Shown: positions 15,684 to 54,342 of the stretch, one piece after another
Numbering within the stretch: position 1 is the first letter of the stretch
How the letters are laid out: every line of letters starts with the position of its first letter
Assembly: GCA_002774875.1 (NCBI GenBank)
Contig: PCYM01000001.1
Coordinates: 182,153 to 246,152, forward strand
DNA: 64,000 nucleotides
Origin: Candidatus Uhrbacteria bacterium CG10_big_fil_rev_8_21_14_0_10_50_16
GTDB lineage: Bacteria; Patescibacteriota; Patescibacteriia; UBA9934; UBA11717
Reading direction: 5' to 3'
The notes under the pieces: generated by a model
What the model was told of the DNA's origin: nothing
The model's database searches: none
The model's input: only the letters and a program-made list of their open reading frames with translations
Program-made: the position numbers and the translations under genes

Positions 15684-18239
15684 CTACAACGATGCAGGGA
15701 GTGTTGGCGCAACGGGCGGTGGCGGTGTTGGCGATCCGTATCCAGAACGTCGCGCGATGTCGCGTTCTACCTGTGCACGCGGTTTTCCGTAGGTAAGTCG
15801 TGCAAGCTGACGGATTTTTTCTGCAAGTTCTGGATTTGATTTGACGGGCGGTAAACTCGTCATAGTAAACGGCGGCAACTGCGTATTATTTTTTATCATC
15901 TTTGTGTACCACGTAAACGGATCGGAGTTAATGAGGTCGTTGGCATTAAACTCTGGTGCGAAGACTTTAATAAAGGTGTCCGTGTCCTCCGGTCCAATGC
16001 GACTCACAAACATCGATCCCACGTTTCCCAAAATCGCGTCGCGAATTTCCGTGTCCCCGCGTTGCACCACTTGGCTCATGTATTGGTGAGCCAAAATGAG
16101 ATCGAGTCGATATTTACGCGCCTCGGAAAGAATTGTTGCAATACTTGGCGTCACAAAGTTTTGAAACTCGTCGATATAAAGGTAGAAGTCTTTTCGCAGC
16201 TCCTCTGCCATGTCGGCGCGTGCCATAGCCGCCATTTGAAGTTTCGACACAATCACCAATCCCAAAAGCTGCGCGTTTACCTCTCCTGTTTTTCCTTTGG
16301 AAAGATCGATCAACAAGATTTTTTCCTTGTCCATCACCTCGCGGAAACTAAATCCGGAATGCGTTTGACCAATAATATTGCGCATCATGGCGTCCTCCAC
16401 AAAACGACCAACCTTGGAGATGAGGTAACCTAACATCTCGGACTTATGGAAGTCACTCACCTTTGCCATCTCTTGTTCCCAATACGCACGCACAACAGGA
16501 TCCTTAACCTTTGCAACCCATTGCTTCTGAAAGTCTTCGTCGCTAAACATGCGAGGGATCTCGGCAATCGTCCCCGGGTTCTCAAAATCTGACATAAGCG
16601 TAAGCATCACGTTGCGCATATGATGCTCAAACGTTGGCCCGATCATGTCTGGCGGAAACAACTTATAGAAAATGGAAATCATGTCCTGCACCGTAAGGTC
16701 GATCAACGCAGGCGTTGGTGCCTCCAACATGTTGAGTCCAACCGGCATGTCTGTGTCATATGGCGCAAACACCACCACATCCTCAATACGGTCCGGTGGA
16801 ATCGCCCCAAGAATCGTCGTAATAGCGTCTCCATGGGGATCCACGTAGCAAACACCGTGACCAGCAACAATATCGGCCACCGCCATGGCAACAATTTCTG
16901 TGGTTTTTCCGGAACCAGACTTACCGATAAAATACATGTGGCGCTGACGATCCGATGCAGAAATGCGAATCGGCGTCTTGGCACCTCTGTATTTATTGTG
17001 ACCAAGCAAAATTCCTTCCTTTGGCATATCGGCAGGCGCCGGTGCTGTGCGTGCGCCAAGCCAATCAATGTTCGACACAGGCGTGCCCGACATGGGAGGA
17101 TGCCACAAACTGGCAAGCTCTTCCGTGTTTAATACCAATCCTTCAGAATCGACGTAATTGCGATAAATAAAATCTTGCACCATGCGTGAGATATTACGTG
17201 GCACACTCTTTTCAAAACTATTCCCGAATTGGTAAATGTTGTATTGCGAAAAACTATTAAGAATATTATTGAGCGACGCTTGTGCAGATCCAACGTTTTC
17301 TGCACTCACGAGTATACGAATATTCACATCAAGCCCTGCACGTGAGGCCTTGTCTTCGATCCCTTTAAGCATCTCACGCTCGCGATCACTCATCTGACGC
17401 TGCGGCTCCTGCGACCCAGAACCATTTTTATCGCTTTTTCCAGAGATCAAACTCCCAAGTTTCATTCCGGAACCTCCTTCCTTTGGACTCTTCCCTTTTA
17501 ACGCCTGCTTGATTGTTGCCCCCTCCTGCATTAATTTGACAACGTTCAAGCCTCTTTCTCGCCAGGAACCTTTTGCAGAACGCGCGACAACCTGGATTGC
17601 TGCTCCGTCTGTTTCTGGGACTTTTGCCAATGCATTCAACAAGGCATAAAGAGGATCAGATTCAAGCTGTTTGTACGTTTTAATAGGAAACAAGTCCTCG
17701 CGCTTTAACGTGACATAGCTTCCAAGCACAACACCCGTTGGCGTAAACATATTGTAATCTTCCGCCTCCTCTACCTCTGCATCCGGAAACTGCGCATGCA
17801 ACTGCTGTACCATAAGCTCCTTCATAGCCGCAGGCGTTGCCACATAAAAATAAATAACCCCCGCTTTTACGACCATCTCAAATGCAATGTGATCTGTCCT
17901 GCCGTGCAACCATGCATTAAATCCTTTCTGATATGGTAGTCCACCGAGCGCCGAAAAAAACGTCTCTGCCACAGCAATGTCTTCCTGCACTTGTCGCAGT
18001 TCTAATGCTTCCTCACGCTCGCTCGATACAAATCGCGGGATCCGAACACGTAATACACGCATGTGCAAATTACCTCCCGCTTTACGGTGCGCGCGTAGAT
18101 GAAACCCACGGAACACAAAGAGCGCCGCTACGAGAATTCCTATCACCAGCAGCCCAATGACAACAGGAACAAGGCTCTCGATCATCGAAGGCGTGGATGA
18201 GAGTGTTGAGGCACTCGTGTTGAGGGTGATGGCAAACAT
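15684..18239 (-). CDS. TraD/VirD4/TrwB-like P-loop ATPase with N-terminal TM segment (type IV coupling-protein family)
   Basis: N-terminal TM helices, Walker A YFIGKSGSGKTT, Walker B LYIDEFQNF, 851 aa. Confidence 0.55.
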   Translation of the reverse strand: MFAITLNTSASTLSSTPSMIESLVPVVIGLLVIGILVAALFVFRGFHLRAHRKAGGNLHMRVLRVRIPRFVSSEREEALELRQVQEDIAVAETFFSALGGLPYQKGFNAWLHGRTDHIAFEMVVKAGVIYFYVATPAAMKELMVQQLHAQFPDAEVEEAEDYNMFTPTGVVLGSYVTLKREDLFPIKTYKQLESDPLYALLNALAKVPETDGAAIQVVARSAKGSWRERGLNVVKLMQEGATIKQALKGKSPKEGGSGMKLGSLISGKSDKNGSGSQEPQRQMSDREREMLKGIEDKASRAGLDVNIRILVSAENVGSAQASLNNILNSFSQYNIYQFGNSFEKSVPRNISRMVQDFIYRNYVDSEGLVLNTEELASLWHPPMSGTPVSNIDWLGARTAPAPADMPKEGILLGHNKYRGAKTPIRISASDRQRHMYFIGKSGSGKTTEIVAMAVADIVAGHGVCYVDPHGDAITTILGAIPPDRIEDVVVFAPYDTDMPVGLNMLEAPTPALIDLTVQDMISIFYKLFPPDMIGPTFEHHMRNVMLTLMSDFENPGTIAEIPRMFSDEDFQKQWVAKVKDPVVRAYWEQEMAKVSDFHKSEMLGYLISKVGRFVEDAMMRNIIGQTHSGFSFREVMDKEKILLIDLSKGKTGEVNAQLLGLVIVSKLQMAAMARADMAEELRKDFYLYIDEFQNFVTPSIATILSEARKYRLDLILAHQYMSQVVQRGDTEIRDAILGNVGSMFVSRIGPEDTDTFIKVFAPEFNANDLINSDPFTWYTKMIKNNTQLPPFTMTSLPPVKSNPELAEKIRQLARLTYGKPRAQVERDIARRSGYGSPTPPPPVAPTLPASL

Positions 18240-18782: not shown

Positions 18783-19748
18783 ATGGCTGTGCACGCAGTC
18801 TGCGAAGGCACGCTGGCTATGTTATACTTTTGGTACATGACAAGGAGGTCAACGGTGCAACGTCTTAAGCGTGGAAACACGGAATGGTTCAACGTGGAAC
18901 ATGCACGCTCCCTAGACGTACAATCTCTTGTAAAACCCTTCCATCTTTCCGACGAAGATATTCGTTTGATTTTGGATGCCAGTCATAGATCACGGTTATT
19001 CGTACGACCTGATTATCTCATGGTGTTTTTAACGCATCCCGTTTACGATCGCGTACGAGATGATGTCGTGATACAGGAAATTGACCTATTGCTTACTCCC
19101 CACGCAATCGCCACTATTCACCACAGTCCTTTTAATCAGGTATCTAGCCTATTTTCGACATTACAGGCAACAAAGTCGCAAACAGCGCTCGGTGATCCCG
19201 CGCTCATTTTTGCCGATGTTCTATCTCTCCTCATTGAAGACGTGCGTGACATCTTAGAAATCCTTGCAAAACAAATCGACGTCGTAGAAGAGCAATTGTT
19301 TCATAATCGTCGCAGTCTATTGCAAGAGCTGCTTAGCATCCAAACCAACCTTATTGATGTGCAAAAAACGCTTGAATCACGTACAACGATTATCGATCGC
19401 TTGCTGGCCGCATTGCCAAAACGAACCGGATCCGCACGTACAGCAACCTACGCAGAGCTTCATCGTCAGACAGACGAGCTTCAAAATAGTCTCAACACGG
19501 AATATCAAACGATTGTTACCCTGCACCGTGCGCATGAGACCTACCTCAACTCGCGTACCAACAGGTTGATTTACATTTTGACATCTGTGACAATTATCGT
19601 AATGCCTGCCACGTTGCTTGCTGGGATTTTTGGGATGAATACGGTGCATCCATGGATTCTGGGAACAGAAAAAGACTTTTCGATTATTATTGCCATCATG
19701 GTTCTCAGCGGAACCTTTCTGTGGCTGTTTCTGCGTCGCAAACGTTAG
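18783..19748 (+). CDS. corA: CorA-family divalent cation transporter
   Basis: C-terminal two TM helices with GMN motif (FGMNTVHPW). Confidence 0.7.
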   Translation: MAVHAVCEGTLAMLYFWYMTRRSTVQRLKRGNTEWFNVEHARSLDVQSLVKPFHLSDEDIRLILDASHRSRLFVRPDYLMVFLTHPVYDRVRDDVVIQEIDLLLTPHAIATIHHSPFNQVSSLFSTLQATKSQTALGDPALIFADVLSLLIEDVRDILEILAKQIDVVEEQLFHNRRSLLQELLSIQTNLIDVQKTLESRTTIIDRLLAALPKRTGSARTATYAELHRQTDELQNSLNTEYQTIVTLHRAHETYLNSRTNRLIYILTSVTIIVMPATLLAGIFGMNTVHPWILGTEKDFSIIIAIMVLSGTFLWLFLRRKR

Positions 19749-27784: not shown

Positions 27785-27822
27785 AATCGACGGGCGGCAG
27801 GGAGAGTTCCCCGCCGCCCGTT
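27785..27822 (-). terminator. terminator of cassette G
   Basis: CGGGCGGCagggagagttccCCGCCGCCCG hairpin then U-rich tract on minus strand. Confidence 0.6.
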
Positions 27823-27835
27823 TGGAAGTTGTGGG

Positions 27836-28546
27836 TCATTCGATGCGACGCTCCTTGAGCAGTACCAGCGTGAGGACATCGGCCGCCAAGGTTACCGCGA
27901 TGCATAGCCGAATCACCGGCACGTTGAGCGAGCCCGGGACGTTCTCCACAAAGAGCAGGAGTACTACACCGGTGGTTGCAGCATCTGCCAAGAACCGTGC
28001 ACGTTGCGCCCACATCGAGAGCTGCTGCGGTTCCTGCGCTTGCATCACAAACGGCACGTAGGCCACGGAGATGTAAGCGCCGATGATCACCGCGCCGGAG
28101 ATGGGATCCTGCACGTTAAACTGTTGCGCGAAACTCTGGTACAGCACCGTCGTCAAAGTGAGCACGGCGCCCGCGGTCAGAGCCTTGAGCATGCGGCTAG
28201 TGCCCTTGTCGGCAAACAGTACCCAGCACACCACCAGCACAGTATCCATGGCCAGCCATGGCCACTCGATGATGCGCAGCGGCAGCTCGACTGGATCCGT
28301 AGGCGGCCACACAAGAGTGAACGTGTACTCAAAGCTCCACATCATTGCCAGACCCAGCAACGGAATGTTGTTGACCTTGTTCTTGATGCTTCCTCGAATC
28401 AACAAGATGAAGGTTGCCGTCCACCCGGCAAGCACGCCCACCAAGCTCAGACACGCCATCAAGGCAAGCGGCCACGGCAGACTCTTGAGGACGACCAACG
28501 TCTCACGAATCGCGTCCAACGTTACAAGGGGTTCACACGTTTCCAT
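27836..28546 (-). CDS. GC-rich ORFan polytopic membrane protein (cassette G)
   Basis: about 58% GC. Minus-strand promoter TTGACA-16/17-TAAGTT, Shine-Dalgarno GGAGAGGAGAAAG, 4 nt, then ATG (METCEPLV..). About 6 TM helices; own terminator. Confidence 0.55.
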   Translation of the reverse strand: METCEPLVTLDAIRETLVVLKSLPWPLALMACLSLVGVLAGWTATFILLIRGSIKNKVNNIPLLGLAMMWSFEYTFTLVWPPTDPVELPLRIIEWPWLAMDTVLVVCWVLFADKGTSRMLKALTAGAVLTLTTVLYQSFAQQFNVQDPISGAVIIGAYISVAYVPFVMQAQEPQQLSMWAQRARFLADAATTGVVLLLFVENVPGSLNVPVIRLCIAVTLAADVLTLVLLKERRIE

Positions 28547-28625
28547 GTCTTTCTCCTCTCCAAGTACGTCAGCGTCATAACGACTCTGCGAACTTATCAG
28601 ATTTTTGAAATTTGTCAACGGAGCC

Positions 28626-28660
28626 GCCTAAACAAAAAAGAGCCCGAGGCTCTTTTAAGC
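28626..28660 (-). terminator. bidirectional terminator after K+ channel gene
   Basis: AAAAAAGAGCCcgaGGCTCTTTT. Confidence 0.7.
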
Positions 28661-28669
28661 AATGAATCG

Positions 28670-29005
28670 TTATTTTTTTCTTCGTTTTTTTGTGATACGC
28701 CCACGAATACTCATTTGATCGTGATAGCGTGCAAAAACTAGCTCGCCGACGATTCCAATTCCAAAGAGCAACAATGGAATAGAGAGGAGTGCGTAGACAC
28801 TTGTTACCAAGCGAGAGGTGTCCGATGAGGGTGCAAGATCTCCATAGCCGACTGTCGTCACCGTTGCCACGGAAAAATAAAACGCCTGGATCCATGTCCA
28901 ATTCTCAAGCCGCTGAAAAATGATCGTACCTCCTACCAAGAGCGCCGCGAGCACCACAAAGATCAGGAAGATACGTTTTACAAACTGGTTTGTAATCGTA
29001 TTCAT
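28670..29005 (-). CDS. two-TM potassium channel (pore-only, KcsA-like)
   Basis: Selectivity filter TVGYGD flanked by two TM helices; 111 aa. Host-like GC, extended -10 TGaTACAAT close to the ATG (leaderless-like). Confidence 0.7.
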   Translation of the reverse strand: MNTITNQFVKRIFLIFVVLAALLVGGTIIFQRLENWTWIQAFYFSVATVTTVGYGDLAPSSDTSRLVTSVYALLSIPLLLFGIGIVGELVFARYHDQMSIRGRITKKRRKK

Positions 29006-29247
29006 GATGACATTGTATCAATAAAGGATCCTTTTCTCTCTCCTTTTGTGTGGATAACAAACTCGCGCAAACGGAGGTTCTTCTATTGACAGGATCCGAA
29101 TTTAGAGATATGTTCATTTTATTGGAAAGGTTTATTGAGTCTGTGAGATAAGCGCTGTGTTTATCGATCATTGGTAAACAAGGCGCTTGTCTCATGCACG
29201 AGATGGCCGTGACCGTCCGAAGACGGATCGATTCTAGGGAGACGGTG

Positions 29248-30117
29248 ATGAAGAATTTCACACCCCCGCAGTTGGACATGTTCCGGGAGGCCGTCGAGTT
29301 GGAGGCTTCCGCCCTCAACCTAAGTCGAGAGCAGCTTCAAGGAGTCCTGGGCAGCAGGAGGCTCCGCGGCATGCTGCGAGACCTTCTGGTGGAGCTCGGA
29401 CAGGAGTATCCGCCAAACGCGGACGAGGCTCGCGTGCGTCTGTGGGACCATTTCCTGGGAGTCGCCGAGGCCCGCAAGGCGTTCGGAGTCCTGATCTCGG
29501 ACAGCATGATCCGGGAACTGGGCGATGTGCCGGACGACCTGTTGGGCCGTATCATGGCGAGCCACGGCCCTGGCGAGAAGGAGTATCTCCGGCTCTTCCT
29601 GGATCCGGGACTGTCCGTCGCGACCATGATTCGCTCGCAGGGAGTCCAGTACAAGGGGAGCTACGACGACTCCATGCTCTCCAGCTTCAACCAGCCGTGC
29701 TGGCGACTTGTGGATGTTCGCCACTTGTACAACCAGAGTGCCCGGCGGATCCTGACCATGGAGCTGATGAGCTTGCTCTCCAAGGGCATCAGCCAGACGG
29801 GTGAGTTGGAGCAACTCCAGCTCGGCCGTAAGGACACCGCTGGTCACACGGTCTACATGTCCTCGCGACAGAAGGTTCAGTACCACAAGCTGCAAATCAT
29901 CGGGTCGGCTCGGCCGAGCCAGGTGATGACCATCACGGTCCCCCTGATCCGTCCGTCGACTCAGAAATACCGGCACGCAACGCCGGAAGAGATCCGATCT
30001 GCCTACAGCAGAGAGATTGCGCTGGAAAGCGTTATGCTGCCTGACGGGAGGTGGTTCTTGTCCACCAGGATCGACAGAGTCGTTGTCCTGGTGAGCGAGA
30101 TCACCTGGATCAAGTAG
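29248..30117 (+). CDS. GC-rich ORFan protein (cassette A)
   Basis: about 60% GC. Promoter TTGACA(29085-29090)-17-TATGTT, Shine-Dalgarno AGGGAGA, 5 nt, then ATG (MKNFTPPQ..). Terminator 30139-30180. The antisense 284-aa ORF has an R/G/L-rich artefact composition. Confidence 0.6.
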   Translation: MKNFTPPQLDMFREAVELEASALNLSREQLQGVLGSRRLRGMLRDLLVELGQEYPPNADEARVRLWDHFLGVAEARKAFGVLISDSMIRELGDVPDDLLGRIMASHGPGEKEYLRLFLDPGLSVATMIRSQGVQYKGSYDDSMLSSFNQPCWRLVDVRHLYNQSARRILTMELMSLLSKGISQTGELEQLQLGRKDTAGHTVYMSSRQKVQYHKLQIIGSARPSQVMTITVPLIRPSTQKYRHATPEEIRSAYSREIALESVMLPDGRWFLSTRIDRVVVLVSEITWIK

Positions 30118-30138
30118 CCCAGCGCCTAGCACCCACAA

Positions 30139-30180
30139 GGGGGCGTCCGCAATCCTGCGGACGCCCCCTCTCACTTTATC
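30139..30180 (+). terminator. terminator of cassette A
   Basis: GGGGGCGTCCGCaatcctGCGGACGCCCCC + TCTCACTTTAT. Confidence 0.7.
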
Positions 30181-30238
30181 TACCCTCTATTGACGTCCTG
30201 TCTCTTTTCTTGTATCCTCTCGTTGCGTTTCAATTCAC

Positions 30239-30313
30239 GGCCCCATCGTCTAACGGTTAGGACAGCAGGTTCTCATCCTGCAAATCCGGGTTCGATTCCC
30301 GGTGGGGTCACCA
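30239..30313 (+). tRNA. tRNA-Glu (anticodon CTC), CCA encoded
   Basis: Acceptor GGCCCCA/TGGGGTC, anticodon stem GCAGG/CCTGC with loop TTCTCAT, T-arm CCGGG-TTCGATT-CCCGG, then ACCA. Followed by terminator CCGAGctcgtCTCGG+T7 (30317-30350). Confidence 0.8.
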
Positions 30314-30372
30314 ACAAAAAATCCGAGCTCGTCTCGGGTTTTTTGTTGGTACCTCCCGCGGAAATTGGACAA

Positions 30373-30413
30373 GGGGCACTGGGAAGGGAGAAATTCTCCC
30401 TTCCCAGTGCCCC
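30373..30413. other. 18-bp perfect hairpin (GGGGCACTGGGAAGGGAG aaatt CTCCCTTCCCAGTGCCCC)
   Basis: Perfect inverted repeat 60 nt downstream of tRNA-Glu, no U-tract; candidate recombination/att-type structure at the island border. Confidence 0.6.
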
Positions 30414-30454
30414 TATTATGAGGTTTAAAATGCGATCGACACCACGCATACACT

Positions 30455-30503
30455 CATATCTTATTCTAAATTAACAACACGGTGGGGTCCGGAGACCCCA
30501 CCG
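30455..30503 (-). terminator. terminator of cassette F
   Basis: CGGTGGGGTCtccgGACCCCACCG then UGUUGUUAAUUU on minus strand. Confidence 0.5.
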
Positions 30504-30522
30504 CTATCAGGAGTGGGTGCGT

Positions 30523-31008
30523 TCAGCCGCCGCCGCACCGACACGAGCTACGCTGACCGTGATCGCTGTTGCAGCAACCCTGCGCGTGACCCCAGTCGCG
30601 TTCACCATCCTCGGGCCAGATCTCGGTGTCGAGATCGGCGTACAGGCCGCACAGGTACTCACGGGTGCGCGCGTAGGTTCCCGGCTCCATCGATCCCGGC
30701 AGATCGCACGGGTCGTGGTGAAGGTAATCCACGCCCATGGACTGACAGAAGTCGGTGTACGGCTTGCTGTAGAGCAGGAACGTGTGCCACGCCTCATCGG
30801 CTAGATGTGACGGAGCAAGACGACGACCTTCCGGAACTGCGCAAGCGCGCAGGAACTGGATGGCGCCATCAAAGGCTCGACGGGCCACATCCTCGTCGAT
30901 ACTCATATTCTTGACCATGCGAGCTATCACGCGGTCACGAATGGATGAGTCGAGGTTGTAGTCGGGGAGTCGAATCTGAGACTCGACCAAACAAAGGGCG
31001 GCAGACAT
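30523..31008 (-). CDS. GC-rich ORFan protein (cassette F)
   Basis: about 62% GC. Minus-strand promoter TTGACA-17-TAGAGT, Shine-Dalgarno GAGGTG, 4 nt, then ATG (MSAALCLVES..). Conserved-looking core EAWHTFLLYSKPYTDFC..YLHHDP, Cys-rich tail. Confidence 0.5.
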   Translation of the reverse strand: MSAALCLVESQIRLPDYNLDSSIRDRVIARMVKNMSIDEDVARRAFDGAIQFLRACAVPEGRRLAPSHLADEAWHTFLLYSKPYTDFCQSMGVDYLHHDPCDLPGSMEPGTYARTREYLCGLYADLDTEIWPEDGERDWGHAQGCCNSDHGQRSSCRCGGG

Positions 31009-31079
31009 AAGCACCTCAATCAATCGTCTCGAACGGCATGTCCGAGACGCTTACTCTACGTGCCTCACAGCCATGTTGT

Positions 31080-31125
31080 CAACATATCACTGGTCGGGTC
31101 TATAAAAATAGTGGCGCCCGCCCAG
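31080..31125 (-). terminator. terminator of cassette E
   Basis: GCCCGCCCGGGatcctccTGGGCGGGCGC + CACUAUUUUUAUAG on minus strand. Confidence 0.6.
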
Positions 31126-31148
31126 GAGGATCCCGGGCGGGCGTACGT

Positions 31149-31739
31149 TCACTTGATGTTCGGACAGACCTTGGGCAAATCGGAGAACTGCCAAGAGACT
31201 CCGAGATCCTGCAGATTCCGCAGTTCTTGTTCCATGCGGTTGCGAGTGTTGTTGAGACCGATTGCCATGGCCTGTATGAACCAGGTGCACACGTCGCTGA
31301 TCTCCTGCCAGGTCAACAGCTCGTACTTGGCGAGAACCGCAGACAGACGGCCGTCCTGCCCCTTGTCGAGTCTGCCACTGATGCCATCCACGGCAATCGT
31401 GTTCTGCATCACGTAGACGAGCAGACGGCCGGTCGAATCACTCCCCAGGCGACCCTGCCCGCCCGCGATCATGAGGTCCGCCACCTCCCGATACGAGCTC
31501 CACGCACCCTGGGAGGCTTGGAACATCTCGGCGATCTGCTGTAGTCCGCAGGTCAGCACCTTTGCGTTCTCCACGCGTTCTTCCCGACTCTCCCGTGCCT
31601 GAACCTTGGCCTCGTCTCGAACAGACTGATCCGACACGGACCCGGTGGCCCACGCATTCGTGCAGGACCCCGGTGCCAACAAGAGCACCAACACCACCAA
31701 CATGCAAAACCCCACGAACTTCAATTGCTTCTCCATCAT
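31149..31739 (-). CDS. GC-rich ORFan secreted protein (cassette E)
   Basis: Minus-strand promoter TTGACA-17-TATAAA (31775-31808), Shine-Dalgarno GGGAGAG then ATGATG. Signal peptide MMEKQLKFVGFCMLVVLVLLLAPGSC; 196 aa. Confidence 0.55.
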   Translation of the reverse strand: MMEKQLKFVGFCMLVVLVLLLAPGSCTNAWATGSVSDQSVRDEAKVQARESREERVENAKVLTCGLQQIAEMFQASQGAWSSYREVADLMIAGGQGRLGSDSTGRLLVYVMQNTIAVDGISGRLDKGQDGRLSAVLAKYELLTWQEISDVCTWFIQAMAIGLNNTRNRMEQELRNLQDLGVSWQFSDLPKVCPNIK

Positions 31740-31815
31740 CTCTCCCGTCTCGCCATCTATTCGGCGGATCAACTTCTTTATAGTCAAAAAAAGACTCCGT
31801 GTCAATAGGCCGGGG

Positions 31816-32025
31816 CTAAACCGTCGTCGACCACCACAGGAGAAACGTGACCGTCTCCTCCACAGTGCCAAGCGTCAACAACAGCGTCTTCATCCGTCTT
31901 GTTCCCATACGGCGCCTCAACAAAGCCACCAACGTATTCCACTGCAGAAGATTTAGATCCAGGCCGGTCTGCCTCAGACGTGCGCATACATTTTTCTCAA
32001 CATCTTCCAACGAGAAATCATTCAT
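31816..32025 (-). CDS. possible small ORFan gene with strong Shine-Dalgarno (candidate cassette I)
   Basis: GGAGGT 5 nt before ATG (MNDFSLEDVEK..), 69 aa, about 50% GC. The stop abuts cassette E's promoter; weak TTGACG promoter. Confidence 0.3.
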   Translation of the reverse strand: MNDFSLEDVEKNVCARLRQTGLDLNLLQWNTLVALLRRRMGTRRMKTLLLTLGTVEETVTFLLWWSTTV

Positions 32026-32137
32026 CTATACCTCCAGGCGTTAGAGAGAAACCTGACATCTTAATACGTAATTTTCAGTTTCCGTCATGCGTCAATCAAA
32101 AACGACCCCACATACGCGAGGTCGTTAATTCCACCCA

Positions 32138-38707: not shown

Positions 38708-38864
38708 CTAGCACACAGTATACCACCTTGACAAAATCGCCATTTTCTGATAGGTTAGACCGTCACATTCCGTCTGAGGTTTGTGCAAAATTCACCAGAA
38801 ACATGCCTGTTTGAGGCTGTGCAACACATTTGATCTGCGCCTACGTGCGCGAGAGGAGGATGCG

Positions 38865-41018
38865 ATGAGCGTGAACGTGAAGAAGATTGGTTGGATGGGC
38901 TTCCACTCGGGTCGTCCGCATTTGGACGACTTGTTGGCAGCCGTGATTGGATGCGTGCTTGGCCTCTTTGAGGTCGAGTTCATGGACCCGAAGAGTTCCG
39001 TAAACCTTATCCTGGACGCGAGCGGCATCTCCAATGCCCTGGCGCGCCAGATGAGCGAGACGGGGCGGGACGCCGACGGCGTGCAGTTGTACGCCGCGTG
39101 GATCGGCACGACCCCCAACGGTGGGACCTCCCCCGTCTCCGAGGGCGACCAGTGGTGGTCGCCCTACGACGAGCACGGGAGTGGCAACCCCGCGGACTCG
39201 GCCACGGAGCTCATGCTCCACCTGGCCGGGGACGACAAGGCCATTGGCCGGCGGCTCCAGACCCTCTTCCGGGGATGGGGCATCCGCGCCTCGGAGGCGC
39301 AGGTCGCGGAGTCGGTGGAAAAGCTCCACCACATGGTGGCCTACACCACCATGAAGGACAACTTTCCCGTCGCCATGCGCGGCGGAATCAGCTGGCTCCT
39401 CAAGCAGCTGAACCGGGTGTGCTGCTTCCAGATCGGAGAAGGTGGGAAGATCCGGGAGGAGTCCTACTCCTCCCAGGAGGTCCTCCGTGACCTCCGTTGG
39501 ATCTACCGACTGCTCGTCACCTACATGACGAGCAACCTGCAGATTGAGACCTCCGATCTGGCCGCCGTGGACCAGGAGATGGTTCACTGGTACCTCCAGC
39601 GTGAGGACGTGAGCCCGGCATGGAAGCCGGACACCGCTCCACGCACGATGGCGGAGCTGACGGCCATGATCCGGACGGAGGTGCGCCGCAAGGCGCTGGA
39701 GGCCAAGAAGGCCAACCGGGCATTCAGCCCGCCCTCCACGCTGCTCCGCCGTTTGCGGAGCCTCACCGCTCTGGTGAGTGACTTGCGCAACCCCAGCAAC
39801 TGGGCATCGGTGGAGGCATGGATGCTCCACCAATGGATGGGGGGCAAGAAGGTCCACCTCGGGATGAACGTGGGTAACACCACGACCATCCAGGAGGTGA
39901 TCGCCAACCTCGCCGCCCGCGCGGAAGCTCTCAAGGAGAGCGCGCGGGCGGACACACCCCGCCAGCAGGAGAAGCTGGAGGGCTGGATCCGGCAGCTGCA
40001 GGAGTTGCAGCTGCGCGTGGAGGATGAAGAGCAGACCCGCCAGCTGATGGCGGGAGATGAGCGGATGGATGAGCGGACCGCCGCCTCCCCCTACGGGGTG
40101 GTGGCGACCACGGTCCTGCTCCTGCGGCGTTCCCGCCGCACGGACGGCCTGGCCTTCCCCGAGGGTCAGGCCGTGGCCGAGGAGTACCTCTTCATGGCGC
40201 TGGACGCGCTGTGGGGAAAGATGCTCCTGGCGGAGGCCGCCTCCCGTCAGATCCAGGAGGCACAGGCGGACCCCACCTGCACGCCGGCCATCGCGGTCGA
40301 CTGGCAGGTGAAAGGTGTGGAGCAGCCGGGACTGCTCCACTCCGATGGCATCAACCCCGAGACCCCGGCGGAGGCCCGCCGGATCTTGGGCAAAGGCCAG
40401 GTGGGTGGTCGCCAGGTGAAGCGCTTCCCGCTGATCCTGGTCACCTGCGAGAAGCTGCCGGACGGTACGCCGTTCGGAAGCGCCTACCTGGGCGCCGACC
40501 AGCGGTACTTCGGTACCGACTGGACGGACGGATTCTTCCGTCACATCACGTCCTGGCTCCGAGTCATGGAACTCCGGCGCCAGGGCAATCCGTTGCCGGA
40601 GGACCTCGATACCCTCGAGGCGCCCGACAAGGTGCAGGACCACGTGTGGTTCCTACACCTCAACGGAGACGGAAAGGCCGTCCAGGTGATGGCCAAGAGC
40701 CTCCACCGCCGGGATTCGCCCGGTACGGAGCTGGACGCCAAGCAGGAGATCCTGGCCGCCCAACTGGTGGTCTACACCGTCTTCTGCGCCTGGCGGTCTC
40801 TCGGAGTGTTCGGCAGCCAGCAGGGCCGCCTCAGCCTCCGGGCACGGGACAGCGCCCTGCGGGCGCTCCGCCACCGCCTCGCCGGCGCCGAGGACATGGC
40901 CGCCGAGCTGCAGCTCATCTTGAGCGAGCTCCGCAGCCAGATCGTCATCCACCAGACCGCCCTCCTCCCCCTGCGGGAGTCGAAGGCGCCGGGTGAAGAG
41001 CTCGCCCCCACGAGCTAA
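38865..41018 (+). CDS. large GC-rich ORFan protein, 718 aa (cassette B)
   Basis: about 65% GC against about 48% in flanking genes. Promoter TTGACA(38729-38734)-17-TAGGTT, Shine-Dalgarno GAGGAGGA, 4 nt, then ATG (MSVNVKKIGW..). Balanced amino-acid composition, whereas the other five frames give R/G/L/H-rich artefacts. Terminator 41050-41092. Confidence 0.65.
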   Translation: MSVNVKKIGWMGFHSGRPHLDDLLAAVIGCVLGLFEVEFMDPKSSVNLILDASGISNALARQMSETGRDADGVQLYAAWIGTTPNGGTSPVSEGDQWWSPYDEHGSGNPADSATELMLHLAGDDKAIGRRLQTLFRGWGIRASEAQVAESVEKLHHMVAYTTMKDNFPVAMRGGISWLLKQLNRVCCFQIGEGGKIREESYSSQEVLRDLRWIYRLLVTYMTSNLQIETSDLAAVDQEMVHWYLQREDVSPAWKPDTAPRTMAELTAMIRTEVRRKALEAKKANRAFSPPSTLLRRLRSLTALVSDLRNPSNWASVEAWMLHQWMGGKKVHLGMNVGNTTTIQEVIANLAARAEALKESARADTPRQQEKLEGWIRQLQELQLRVEDEEQTRQLMAGDERMDERTAASPYGVVATTVLLLRRSRRTDGLAFPEGQAVAEEYLFMALDALWGKMLLAEAASRQIQEAQADPTCTPAIAVDWQVKGVEQPGLLHSDGINPETPAEARRILGKGQVGGRQVKRFPLILVTCEKLPDGTPFGSAYLGADQRYFGTDWTDGFFRHITSWLRVMELRRQGNPLPEDLDTLEAPDKVQDHVWFLHLNGDGKAVQVMAKSLHRRDSPGTELDAKQEILAAQLVVYTVFCAWRSLGVFGSQQGRLSLRARDSALRALRHRLAGAEDMAAELQLILSELRSQIVIHQTALLPLRESKAPGEELAPTS

Positions 41019-41049
41019 CCCCCTCCTGCACATGGAGGGACGCGAAAAA

Positions 41050-41092
41050 AGAGGGGCTCCGCAATCTGCGTGAGCCCCTTTTCCTTTTATCT
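41050..41092 (+). terminator. terminator of cassette B
   Basis: AGAGGGGCTCcgcaatctgcgtGAGCCCCTTTTCCTTTTAT. Confidence 0.7.
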
Positions 41093-41098
41093 CTTTTT

Positions 41099-41455
41099 TT
41101 ATTGCGCCGCAGCAATCGCTGCAACAAGTTTTGCTTTAAGACCCGTAAGTGCCGTGACGGCCGTTGCATAATCTTCATCACGGATTGCACGCGATCCCAC
41201 ATATCCTTCTTCCTCCCACACACTCAATTGTGTTGCATCCACACCCGCGGTACTTGCATCCACGAGCAACTGTCCCACGTCGAGCATAAGGTTAAGCGCT
41301 TGGGTCTTTGCGGCACTATCCACGGGAGCCGCTGTCTTAGGGATCTCCTGCGCAGGCACTGCTAATGGTTCAACAGGAATTGAATCGGAGGGTTTGGAAG
41401 CACATCCAGCTCCCACGAGTGAGAAGGCCATGAGCGAGAGAATGAGTTTTTTCAT
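41099..41455 (-). CDS. hypothetical lipoprotein
   Basis: Signal peptide with lipobox-like LVGAGC; 118 aa. Confidence 0.5.
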   Translation of the reverse strand: MKKLILSLMAFSLVGAGCASKPSDSIPVEPLAVPAQEIPKTAAPVDSAAKTQALNLMLDVGQLLVDASTAGVDATQLSVWEEEGYVGSRAIRDEDYATAVTALTGLKAKLVAAIAAAQ

Positions 41456-53653: not shown

Positions 53654-53768
53654 ACAAAAGGGTTATGTGCGCGCCATTGTATCACAATGTTCTTCTTGCA
53701 CGGTTGACAGTCTCACAAAAAATAGGTACAACCTCTGTACTGATCAAAGATATCAGTGGAGAACAGGT

Positions 53769-54290
53769 ATGGAAGATGGTAAGGATTTCTATTTTGAGAG
53801 CGTGATCATTCACGTGGGAGACAAGACGGTGGAGCTGGAGCATGTGCACAGCACCAACAGGCGGTTGCAACGGCTCATGGAGCAGGGTTACGACATAGCC
53901 GCATCGCTCGAGTTCACGGTGGACCCGAATAATCAGGTGGCGACCCAGCTGGGTCTACTGCAGTACCTGCCTGACCCGCGGCAGACGGAGGTCGCGGAAC
54001 CCGAGGTGGGCACTCAACCCGTCGACCTCGCCAACACCGGATTCACGCAAGAACAAGTGAACCTCCTCAACACCCCGGTTAGTGAGCTCCCCCAGATCTT
54101 CGTCGTCCAAGAAATTGTGAGCCTGGCTAGTCGCCATCTGACGCGTCTTCACCACGTAGTGGTGGGCGGTGGACCGAGGTCCCTGAGCCTTTCTGAGGCG
54201 ACAGAGACCAGATATCAGAACTTGCTCAACGCGCACGGCCTGAAGATCTATTCGCCACTTTCGAGCATTGAGGACCTCCTCCTCGTCTAG
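53769..54290 (+). CDS. GC-rich ORFan protein, 173 aa (cassette D)
   Basis: about 57% GC. Promoter TTGACA(53712-53717)-17-TACAAC, Shine-Dalgarno GGAGAA, 6 nt, then ATG (MEDGKDFYFE..). Terminator GAGCCCGcaccactggtgtCGGGCTC+AAACATTTTTC (54306-54342). Confidence 0.55.
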   Translation: MEDGKDFYFESVIIHVGDKTVELEHVHSTNRRLQRLMEQGYDIAASLEFTVDPNNQVATQLGLLQYLPDPRQTEVAEPEVGTQPVDLANTGFTQEQVNLLNTPVSELPQIFVVQEIVSLASRHLTRLHHVVVGGGPRSLSLSEATETRYQNLLNAHGLKIYSPLSSIEDLLLV

Positions 54291-54305
54291 CAGCCCCTAC
54301 AACAA

Positions 54306-54342
54306 GAGCCCGCACCACTGGTGTCGGGCTCAAACATTTTTC
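54306..54342 (+). terminator. terminator of cassette D
   Basis: GAGCCCG/CGGGCTC hairpin plus T-run. Confidence 0.65.

Follow-up and report, generated by a model that had tools for sequence, protein, structure and literature searches.

Do the GC-rich genes that crowd around a tRNA-Glu gene in Candidatus Uhrbacteria make up one acquired system, or did they arrive one by one? The question is raised by a 64-kb stretch of DNA (hereafter, the window) from this uncultured groundwater bacterium of the candidate phyla radiation (CPR, or Patescibacteria), in which five open reading frames (ORFs), here called G, A, F, E and I, lie between hrcA and a Na+/H+ antiporter gene. A first-pass annotation, made from the sequence alone, had proposed that they form a horizontally acquired multi-gene system with membrane, cytoplasmic and secreted components. 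Horizontal acquisition is well supported, since the GC-rich genes depart from the chromosomal backbone in third-position composition, codon choice, translation signals and terminator style, and the syntenic locus of the one related genome lacks G, F, E and I. The idea of a single system is not supported, as the genes have separate histories, lie in insulated units, enclose an ancestral host gene and have no co-occurring homologues. Instead, the stretch from hrcA to the antiporter gene, centred on tRNA-Glu(CUC), is probably, though by no means certainly, a gene-transfer hotspot in which at least three moron-like single-gene cassettes were acquired separately.

The gene order at the locus is dnaJ, hyp324, dnaK, grpE, hrcA, G, a mini K+ channel gene, A, tRNA-Glu(CUC), a perfect palindrome, F, E, I, the antiporter gene (with a TrkA_N domain), a Ser/Thr kinase gene, a Mur ligase gene and the gene of a penicillin-binding protein (PBP). 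All five ORFs were found where the first-pass annotation had placed them, and its position of the tRNA is confirmed by ARAGORN and Rfam; as it had also described, the genes occupy both strands around the tRNA, with A on the plus strand and G, F, E and I on the minus strand. The island proteins have been deposited as the hypothetical proteins COV06_01140 to COV06_01170. Since the island sequence is the same in six independently assembled contigs from different samples, with a single mismatch in one of them, an assembly artefact can be ruled out as its source.

Base composition and codon choice set these genes apart from the chromosome. With the 46 other ORFs of the window as background, for which the GC content at third codon positions (GC3) is 0.507 +/- 0.052, G, A, F and E reach z-scores between 3.6 and 5.7 (Table 1), and the overall GC content of 57-62% that had been attributed to the block applies to these four genes but not to I, whose value is 0.510. 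The four genes display the normal coding pattern of GC1>GC2<GC3, as expected for genuine genes of a genome with about 60% GC. The codon choice of the island genes is clearly foreign: AAG accounts for 96% of their lysine codons against 47% in host genes, and CTG for 39% of their leucine codons against 10%. The same genes differ from their neighbours in the way in which translation is signalled. Indeed, a Shine-Dalgarno (SD) sequence is present in all five island ORFs, 2-6 nt before the start codon, whereas none was found within 25 nt of the starts, as set by the gene caller, of the nearest host genes, namely those for the Mur ligase, the kinase and the antiporter together with hrcA, grpE, dnaK, dnaJ and cysS. 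The distant corA (18783-19748, plus strand), with an AAGGAGG sequence and a GTG start, is the exception among the host-like genes that were checked. Thus, the contrast in SD use drawn by the first-pass annotation stands for the eight neighbouring genes, while the spacing of 4-6 nt that it gave is right for G, A and I and too long for F (3 nt).

Transcription signals, which are predictions from a consensus scan and direct reading of the sequence, complete the anatomy of the cassettes. Each of G, A, F and E is bracketed by a predicted promoter and a predicted terminator, the arrangement that characterizes morons, and I is not. A perfect TTGACA box with a spacer of 16-17 nt had been reported for every gene; this is the case for G (16), A (17) and E (17), while the spacer of F is 18 nt and I has TTGACG alone, with no convincing -10 box. 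Within the window, 5 of the 28 TTGACA sites fall in this 4.4-kb block, all five at promoter-like positions. The perfect -35 box is nevertheless not specific to the island, since host hrcA also has one (TTGACA-17-TAGAAT). An intrinsic terminator of its own is likewise predicted for G, A, F and E but not for I, with none found between I and E. In particular, G, A, F and E end in GC-rich hairpins with weak T tracts, unlike the K+ channel gene and the tRNA, which have canonical terminators with A/T flanks.

Table 1. Features of the hrcA-to-antiporter locus, of cassette-like genes elsewhere in the window and of the corresponding tRNA-Glu region in UBA11717. Positions are those of the window unless another contig is named; z refers to GC3.
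Feature	Position	Strand	Composition	Description
G	27836..28546	-	GC 0.584; GC3 0.751; z=4.7	236-aa multi-pass membrane protein, Pyr4-like family (predicted); between hrcA and K+ channel gene; SD AGGAG at 6 nt
G promoter	28591..28618	-		TTGACA-N14-GATAAGTT (= TTGACA-16-TAAGTT); motif also at A and 717-aa cassette
G terminator	27790..27821	-		inverted repeat, 14-bp GC-rich stem, poor T tract
Mini K+ channel gene	28670..29005	-	GC 0.452; GC3 0.482; host-like	111 aa; host, ancestral; Ion_trans_2, 71 bits
A	29248..30117	+	GC 0.606; GC3 0.807; z=5.7	289-aa ORFan, predicted cytoplasmic; extended by gene callers to 307 aa from 29194; SD GGAG at 6 nt
A promoter	29086..29114	+		TTGACA-N15-GATATGTT (= TTGACA-17-TATGTT)
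A leader	29115-29247	+		~130 nt; ~24-bp hairpin at 29143-29195
A terminator module	30138..30181	+		hairpin 30138-30169, 14-bp perfect stem
tRNA-Glu(CUC)	30239-30313	+		ARAGORN; Rfam, 61.9 bits
tRNA-Glu unit	30190..30341	+		promoter TTGACG-17-TATCCT at 30190-30218; canonical terminator at 30323-30341
Perfect palindrome	30372..30414			21+1+21 nt; arms 30372-30392 and 30394-30414, 100% complementary
F	30523..31008	-	GC 0.609; GC3 0.698; z=3.6	161-aa UCP032817-like protein; precomputed PF27765; conserved D/W/H/Y/C/HH motif, Cys/Gly-rich tail; SD GAGGTG at 3 nt
F promoter	31053..31082	-		TTGACA-18-TAGAGT
F terminator	30479..30504	-		
E	31149..31739	-	GC 0.591; GC3 0.777; z=5.2	196-aa ORFan, predicted helical; N-terminal signal-like hydrophobic segment; SD GGAG
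E promoter	31777..31805	-		TTGACA-17-TATAAA, read from sequence
E terminator	31115..31143	-		
I	31816..32025	-	GC 0.510; GC3 0.657; z=2.9	possible 69-aa ORF without clear promoter or terminator of its own; SD GGAGGT at 4 nt
717-aa cassette	38728..41092 (CDS 38865-41018)	+	GC 0.66; GC3 0.873; z=7.0	GC-rich ORFan, 7 kb right of the island
Further cassette-like ORF	53704-54332 (CDS 53769-54290)	+	GC3 ~0.67	173 aa
Type IV secretion system (T4SS) coupling protein	15684-18239	-	host-like	851 aa, TrwB/TraG/VirD4-like; ~10 kb from island
Scars around tRNA-Glu in UBA11717	11028-11315, 11374-11525, 11590-11622, 12724-12875 of L007			

Separate histories emerge from the comparison with a relative, which is the central result. 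A search anchored on hrcA across 185,579 species genomes and metagenome contigs led to one related species only, Uhrbacteria UBA11717 (GCA_003509895.1), with 37-39% identity for the hrcA matches that came next. Synteny between the two genomes runs from dnaJ to the PBP gene, with amino acid identities by tblastn of 92% for hrcA, 72% for the K+ channel, 80% for A and 79% for the antiporter. At the syntenic locus of UBA11717, tblastn gave no match to G, F, E or I, so that the comparison of the tRNA-Glu locus with a related genome, which the first-pass annotation had suggested, finds these four genes missing. In UBA11717 hrcA and the K+ channel gene are adjacent, which identifies G as an insertion. 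The K+ channel gene itself, which had rightly been singled out as host-like, lacks an SD sequence and is saturated at synonymous sites relative to its UBA11717 orthologue; it is ancestral, lies outside the acquired DNA and splits the supposed island. A and the tRNA-Glu unit are kept in both genomes, and downstream of the tRNA UBA11717 has other cargo, including an AT-rich gene for a 227-aa membrane protein and two SD-bearing, GC3-richer ORFs, orf122 (GC3 0.66) and sec171 (GC3 0.70). The block is therefore a mosaic of at least three histories: G is found left of an ancestral gene, A occurs in the relative as well, and F, E and I are unique to the window genome. Relatives carrying the same genes with similar composition had been named as the sign of an ancestral block, and this is seen in part: A is shared with equal GC3 but at low divergence, and G, F, E and I are absent.

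In ten backbone genes the difference between the two genomes at fourfold-degenerate sites is 0.55-0.69, close to a saturation of about 0.74, whereas it is 0.143 in A and 0.130 in a further GC-rich cassette that encodes a 717-aa protein outside the block. Expressed as F81 distances, these values become 1.0-2.1 for the backbone, 0.16 for A and 0.15 for the 717-aa cassette. A is still far below saturation after correction for composition, which sets that level at 0.62-0.68 for the cassette genes (0.68 for A), and by the Nei-Gojobori method the proportion of synonymous differences is 0.21 in A and 0.66-0.79 in its flanks. Synonymous divergence is thus about ten-fold lower in A than in every flanking gene, which indicates a recent transfer. 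The tracts of low divergence match the extent of the cassettes, from about 29100 to about 30180 for A and about 38715-41100 for the 717-aa gene. In particular, the tract of A starts at the -10 box and ends just after the terminator, with identity at its edges of 55% in the promoter spacer and 72% past the terminator.

Genes of the cassette type are indeed not confined to the block, as two more lie at 38.7-41.1 kb and 53.7-54.3 kb. The 717-aa gene sits between the PBP gene and a small host gene and has the same anatomy as the island genes, with TTGACA-17-TAGGTT, a leader of about 100 nt, AGGAGG 5 nt before the ATG and a GC-rich terminator. It is found at the syntenic site of UBA11717, where the encoded protein (P0012) has 93% amino acid identity (dN/dS 0.23), and its divergence at fourfold sites suggests that it is of the same age as A. 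Its product matches no Pfam, PHROG or PADLOC family and has no tblastn match in phages or plasmids. The other ORF is preceded by TTGACA-17-TACAAC and by the SD sequence GGAGAA, 5 nt before the ATG, and is followed by a hairpin terminator; its product belongs to no Pfam family, is a singleton at 90% identity and is unique to the window genome. Together, the cassettes take up about 9% of the window. In aquifer Patescibacteria, up to 13% of genome length has been attributed to horizontal gene transfer, mostly exchanged among Patescibacteria, with many islands and individually transferred genes (PMC12455944), and the cassette share of the window is in line with this figure.

On these grounds, the course of events that we favour can be outlined. 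Each cassette would be an autonomous unit made up of a sigma-70-type promoter, sometimes a structured leader, an SD sequence, a GC3-rich ORF and an insulating GC-rich hairpin terminator. G would have inserted between hrcA and the ancestral K+ channel gene; A, whose place is between that gene and the tRNA, would have spread into or between the two Uhrbacteria species long after their split; and F, E and perhaps I would have landed downstream of the tRNA, where UBA11717 has other, repeat-bracketed cargo. Delivery may plausibly have occurred by site-specific integration through a recombinase encoded elsewhere, or by uptake of DNA, with the invariant tRNA as the anchor for homology-facilitated or illegitimate recombination.

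Several observations weigh against this account. No recombinase or transposase domain was found on any called gene in the 64 kb, the island proteins included, as the first-pass annotation had noted for integrases, so that the route of insertion is inferred; and no attachment-site-like repeat or target-site duplication surrounds G or F/E/I in the window genome. No donor was found for any cassette in the viral and plasmid collections searched, and for A and E no other organism yielded a homologue, apart from UBA11717 in the case of A. With one related genome in the collections searched, presence and absence amount to a two-genome comparison. E could be an old, fast-evolving resident, since sec171 of UBA11717 occupies the same position and shows a weak, collinear similarity; at E=0.5, this similarity does not make for clear homology between the two. 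Finally, a promoter motif and a terminator module that some cassettes have in common hint at a shared source or a mobile chassis and less at fully independent origins.

The scars that surround the tRNA-Glu in UBA11717 establish it as a genuine integration site for this clade. There, a 152-nt direct repeat of 96% identity, which contains the last 17 nt of the tRNA, the terminator and the hairpin module, flanks the membrane-protein gene; the tRNA 3' end occurs in a third, partial copy; and the space from the tRNA promoter to the tRNA contains two fragments of the tRNA 5' half, together with a 44-aa GIY-YIG remnant. In the window genome, the palindrome occupies the module just downstream of the tRNA terminator, a module that is kept in UBA11717 within its 152-nt repeat. 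The first-pass annotation was right that a perfect palindrome exists but had its size wrong, as the 18-bp hairpin that it described has arms of 21 nt and folds as a 20-bp stem (z=-7). The homologous hairpin of UBA11717 has an 11-bp inner stem only; the window version is about 35 nt shorter and now perfect. Since the tRNA and F each have a terminator of their own, the hairpin is not needed for termination, and it may be part of an attachment site or the product of template-switch palindromisation. A permissive Rfam scan returned the tRNA alone, besides spurious miRNA-like matches on the palindrome. Just past the tRNA terminator, at 30333-30370, lies a degenerate inverted copy of the tRNA 3' end and terminator arm, 76% complementary over 38 nt, which is kept in UBA11717 and in its repeat. 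A contig assembled independently from another data set (Logan SRR6240789) stops within the tRNA-Glu at position 30284; such a break would fit strain heterogeneity downstream of the tRNA and could equally be due to chance.

These features bring up the alternative that the segment downstream of the tRNA, with F, E, I and perhaps the palindrome, is a decayed integrative element (a prophage, an integrative and conjugative element or a cis-mobilizable element) that inserted at the 3' end of the tRNA and then lost its integrase and distal attachment site. The segment adjoins the 3' end of a tRNA, at the very site where direct repeats of the tRNA 3' end enclose integrase-less cargo in UBA11717, and the palindrome belongs to the module repeated there; moreover, the gene of a T4SS coupling protein, which could be relevant to DNA transfer in this organism, lies 10 kb away. 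Yet the tRNA 3' end and the downstream module each occur only once in the 64 kb (up to three mismatches allowed), and the segment neither contains nor adjoins phage, conjugation or recombinase genes. No PHROG family was matched, scans of viral contigs returned no relatives of G, A, F or E, and the neighbours are housekeeping genes. F and E, furthermore, differ in promoter type and have separate terminators, and a decayed element would leave G, A and the cassettes at 38.7 and 53.7 kb unexplained. We thus regard it as unlikely.

A different alternative starts from what some of the cassettes share. The promoter motif TTGACA-N12-16-GATAnGTT occurs exactly three times in the 64 kb (0.04 expected), each time before a GC-rich cassette, namely G, A and the 717-aa gene, and has no match in 165 unrelated loci. 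A and the 717-aa gene, which were compared and rejected as paralogues, also have in common a terminator module of about 55 nt, whose pattern TCCGCAATC(C)TGCG..TTTATCT has two occurrences in the window, no more, where 0 are expected; the two genes also resemble each other in dinucleotide signature (delta* 56, compared with 183-200 to host genes), and their divergence from UBA11717 is equal (0.15-0.16). In this light, G, A, the 717-aa gene and maybe others might form a previously undescribed class of autonomous single-gene cassettes in Uhrbacteria, with unrelated ORFan cargo in a common chassis of promoter (TTGACA-N14-15-GATAnGTT), SD sequence and terminator, which would pass from species to species and insert at fixed intergenic positions with no recombinase in cis, an unlikely proposal that, if true, would account for tracts of low divergence ending at cassette edges in a synonymous-saturated backbone. 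The more specific version, in which the three genes belong to one family of autonomous single-gene mobile units that circulate in Uhrbacteria and enter fixed intergenic sites with help in trans, draws on the same motifs and tract limits, and we hold it to be quite improbable. Since the same sequences served to define the motifs post hoc, these are suggestive and no proof, and they would be explained just as well if the cassettes came from a single donor genome. Terminal repeats shared among the cassettes were not found in a pairwise comparison of their non-coding ends, target duplications and a recombinase are likewise missing, F and E lack the motifs, and the comparison covers two genomes.

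The single acquired system of the first-pass annotation, in which membrane-bound G, cytoplasmic A and F and secreted E would act together, is very unlikely. The genes do lie close together and are alike in deviant composition and expression signals, and G and A have a promoter motif in common. On the other hand, UBA11717 keeps A without G, F, E or I, an ancestral host gene stands inside the block, and the transcription units are insulated and lie on both strands. Co-occurrence of homologues in other genomes, which had been put forward as a check, was not seen: protein searches with A, E and F returned only the queries themselves and, for A, the UBA11717 protein, and the relatives of F found on plasmids are in unrelated contexts. 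Anti-phage defence finds no support either, as neither the five island proteins nor the 717-aa protein match a PADLOC family at E<=0.1, and there is no PHROG match. Least credible of all is that the GC-rich genes are native and that nucleotide-level selection or biased gene conversion has kept their composition and low divergence, since, although A and the 717-aa gene hold identical syntenic positions in both species and A has near-equal GC3 in the two (0.81 and 0.82) and a leader that is 100% conserved, a fourfold-site difference of 0.13-0.14 lies far under saturation when all neighbours are near it, a dN/dS of 0.49 in A speaks against strong sequence-level constraint, SD use is unlike that of neighbouring host genes, G, F and E are absent from UBA11717, and the unaffected K+ channel gene between G and A rules out any regional effect such as biased gene conversion.

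The reading of separately acquired cassettes leads on to the question of what they carry. G appears to be a Pyr4-like integral membrane protein. It matches Pfam PF25129 with 36.1 bits (cut-off 27), residues 34-225 aligning with positions 20-216 of the 227-position model, and the same family is given in the precomputed annotation; hydropathy suggests about 6-7 transmembrane segments, so that the earlier description as a protein with six such segments is borne out as to its multi-pass nature, with the number left at six or seven. The first-pass annotation had recognised no family in any island protein, which is incorrect for G and for F (PF27765) and remains valid for A and E, for which homologue and library searches give none. 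The Pyr4-like cyclases use one or more acidic catalytic residues as Bronsted acid in the membrane (PMC13307353). The acidic residues E73 and D223 of G sit in predicted hydrophobic segments. Compared with these cyclases, G is a compact multi-pass membrane protein of the usual family size with a near-full-length match; it differs in belonging to a CPR bacterium and in having no terpenoid genes nearby, as neither prenyltransferase nor P450 genes appear in the window annotations. Among 1107 bacterial Pyr4-like candidates, 264 are next to terpenoid genes and 843 have no terpenoid context (PMC13307353). Since most bacterial homologues are thus found without such a context, the family assignment of G does not give an activity. 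No relatives of G were found in the viral-contig scan or by tblastn against plasmids.

F is a member of an uncharacterised family and is predicted to be cytoplasmic. By tblastn it has relatives on 53 plasmid records, mostly from Ralstonia, Streptomyces and Rhizobium and also from Rhodococcus, all of them GC-rich soil bacteria, with 25-37% identity; all are annotated as hypothetical proteins and their gene contexts are inconsistent. A search of 5.8 billion proteins returned F itself only, and the viral-contig scan nothing. When F is aligned with three of the plasmid homologues, D71, W74, H75, Y84, C88, H97, H98, P100, W131 and C145 are invariant, and these positions, together with the Cys/Gly-rich tail, suggest a Cys/His-rich and possibly metal-binding protein. 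E, in which residues 8-26 form the hydrophobic segment, followed by A-W-A, is probably an exported helical protein. Its only match among the 5.8 billion proteins is itself, it matches no entry of Pfam, NCBIfam, PHROG, PADLOC or the PDB, the viral-contig scan found no relatives, and a structure model from the single sequence is unusable (pLDDT 38). More generally, PDB sequence and NCBIfam searches of the island proteins gave nothing useful. I is doubtful as a real gene: most gene callers choose an overlapping 61-aa frame at 31802-31987 with a GC3 of 0.48, and the 69-aa frame has the higher GC3 (0.66) and the SD sequence.

A appears to be a fast-evolving cytoplasmic ORFan, known from two Uhrbacteria species alone. 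Its protein has 79% amino acid identity to the predicted UBA11717 protein (P0002), which is the only other match among the 5.8 billion proteins; an exhaustive HMMER search of 1.84 billion cluster representatives returned A itself only, and no relatives were found in the viral-contig scan or by tblastn against phages. Purifying selection acts on A, but weakly: dN/dS is 0.49 (p=4e-4 against neutrality), compared with 0.03-0.14 in backbone genes, and indels are absent. A structure model built on a two-sequence alignment is unusable (pLDDT 34). The middle of the gene (29540-29700, about residues 100-150) has 50-80% nucleotide identity to UBA11717, with clustered multi-base changes, and the ends are far less diverged. 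As a target of a diversity-generating retroelement A was rejected, given that the changes are clustered, involve all bases and are not adenine-specific, and that the window annotations include no reverse-transcriptase domain. The leader and the first codons are nearly the same in the two genomes: 29140-29259 is identical to UBA11717, with about 93% in the adjoining 40-nt windows and 55-85% in the surrounding DNA, and the fold of 29120-29260 has a minimum free energy of -51.4 kcal/mol (z=-4.6). The in-frame upstream ATG at 29194 sits in the 3' arm of the leader hairpin.

The genomes of CPR bacteria are tiny and their ways of gaining genes are poorly understood, and the locus provides a clean, small example in which foreign genes come singly, each with its promoter, ribosome-binding site and terminator, amid host genes that, as far as examined, have no recognisable SD sequence, and in which two cassettes crossed between species whose core genes are synonymous-saturated. 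Should the common modules truly mark a mobile chassis, this would add a new route to gene flow in CPR bacteria. The products may be considered candidates for roles at the cell surface or in host interaction; they are a membrane protein of the Pyr4-like type, a protein rich in Cys and His, one that is exported and two ORFans. In kind, a hotspot of horizontal gene transfer with moron-like accretion at a tRNA is already known, and what is new are the ORFan families; the unusual feature is the presence of cassette-sized tracts with about ten-fold lower synonymous divergence at two syntenic sites, with promoter and terminator modules in common.

Among the systems to which the locus can be compared, integron cassettes are likewise small, foreign, single-ORF units stacked at one locus, but they are promoterless, share attC, point in one orientation and lie next to IntI, none of which applies to the window cassettes. 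The likeness is closer to tRNA-linked islands and cis-mobilizable elements, where cargo of deviant composition sits at the 3' end of a tRNA and is absent from a relative, and in UBA11717 integrase-less cargo is indeed enclosed by direct repeats of the tRNA 3' end; the window differs in having no integrase in the 64 kb, no flanking repeat and pieces of 0.7-1.1 kb, with G and A upstream of the tRNA, where a host gene separates them. In 2017, Oliveira, Touchon and Rocha reportedly described hotspots of horizontal gene transfer that lie between core genes of chromosomes. In common with these, the locus has a fixed interval (from hrcA to the antiporter gene) of differing accessory content, near a tRNA and with no recognisable mobile-element genes. 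It differs in that a CPR genome is involved, that two lineages can be compared, that the cassettes have complete expression signals of their own, and that two of them occur in both species with a synonymous divergence about ten-fold below that of the backbone. Finally, a moron has by definition a promoter and a terminator of its own and a deviant GC content (PMC3594210). In the temperate phages from which the concept of Hendrix and Juhala derives, morons are single genes between conserved neighbours, with their own signals, deviant GC content and cargo that varies between otherwise syntenic relatives, as is the case here. The setting of the window cassettes is instead a bacterial chromosome, between housekeeping genes, with no phage genes in the window and no PHROG matches, and they also differ from their host in SD use. 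Collectively, the cassettes fit the definition of a moron in every respect except for the missing phage.

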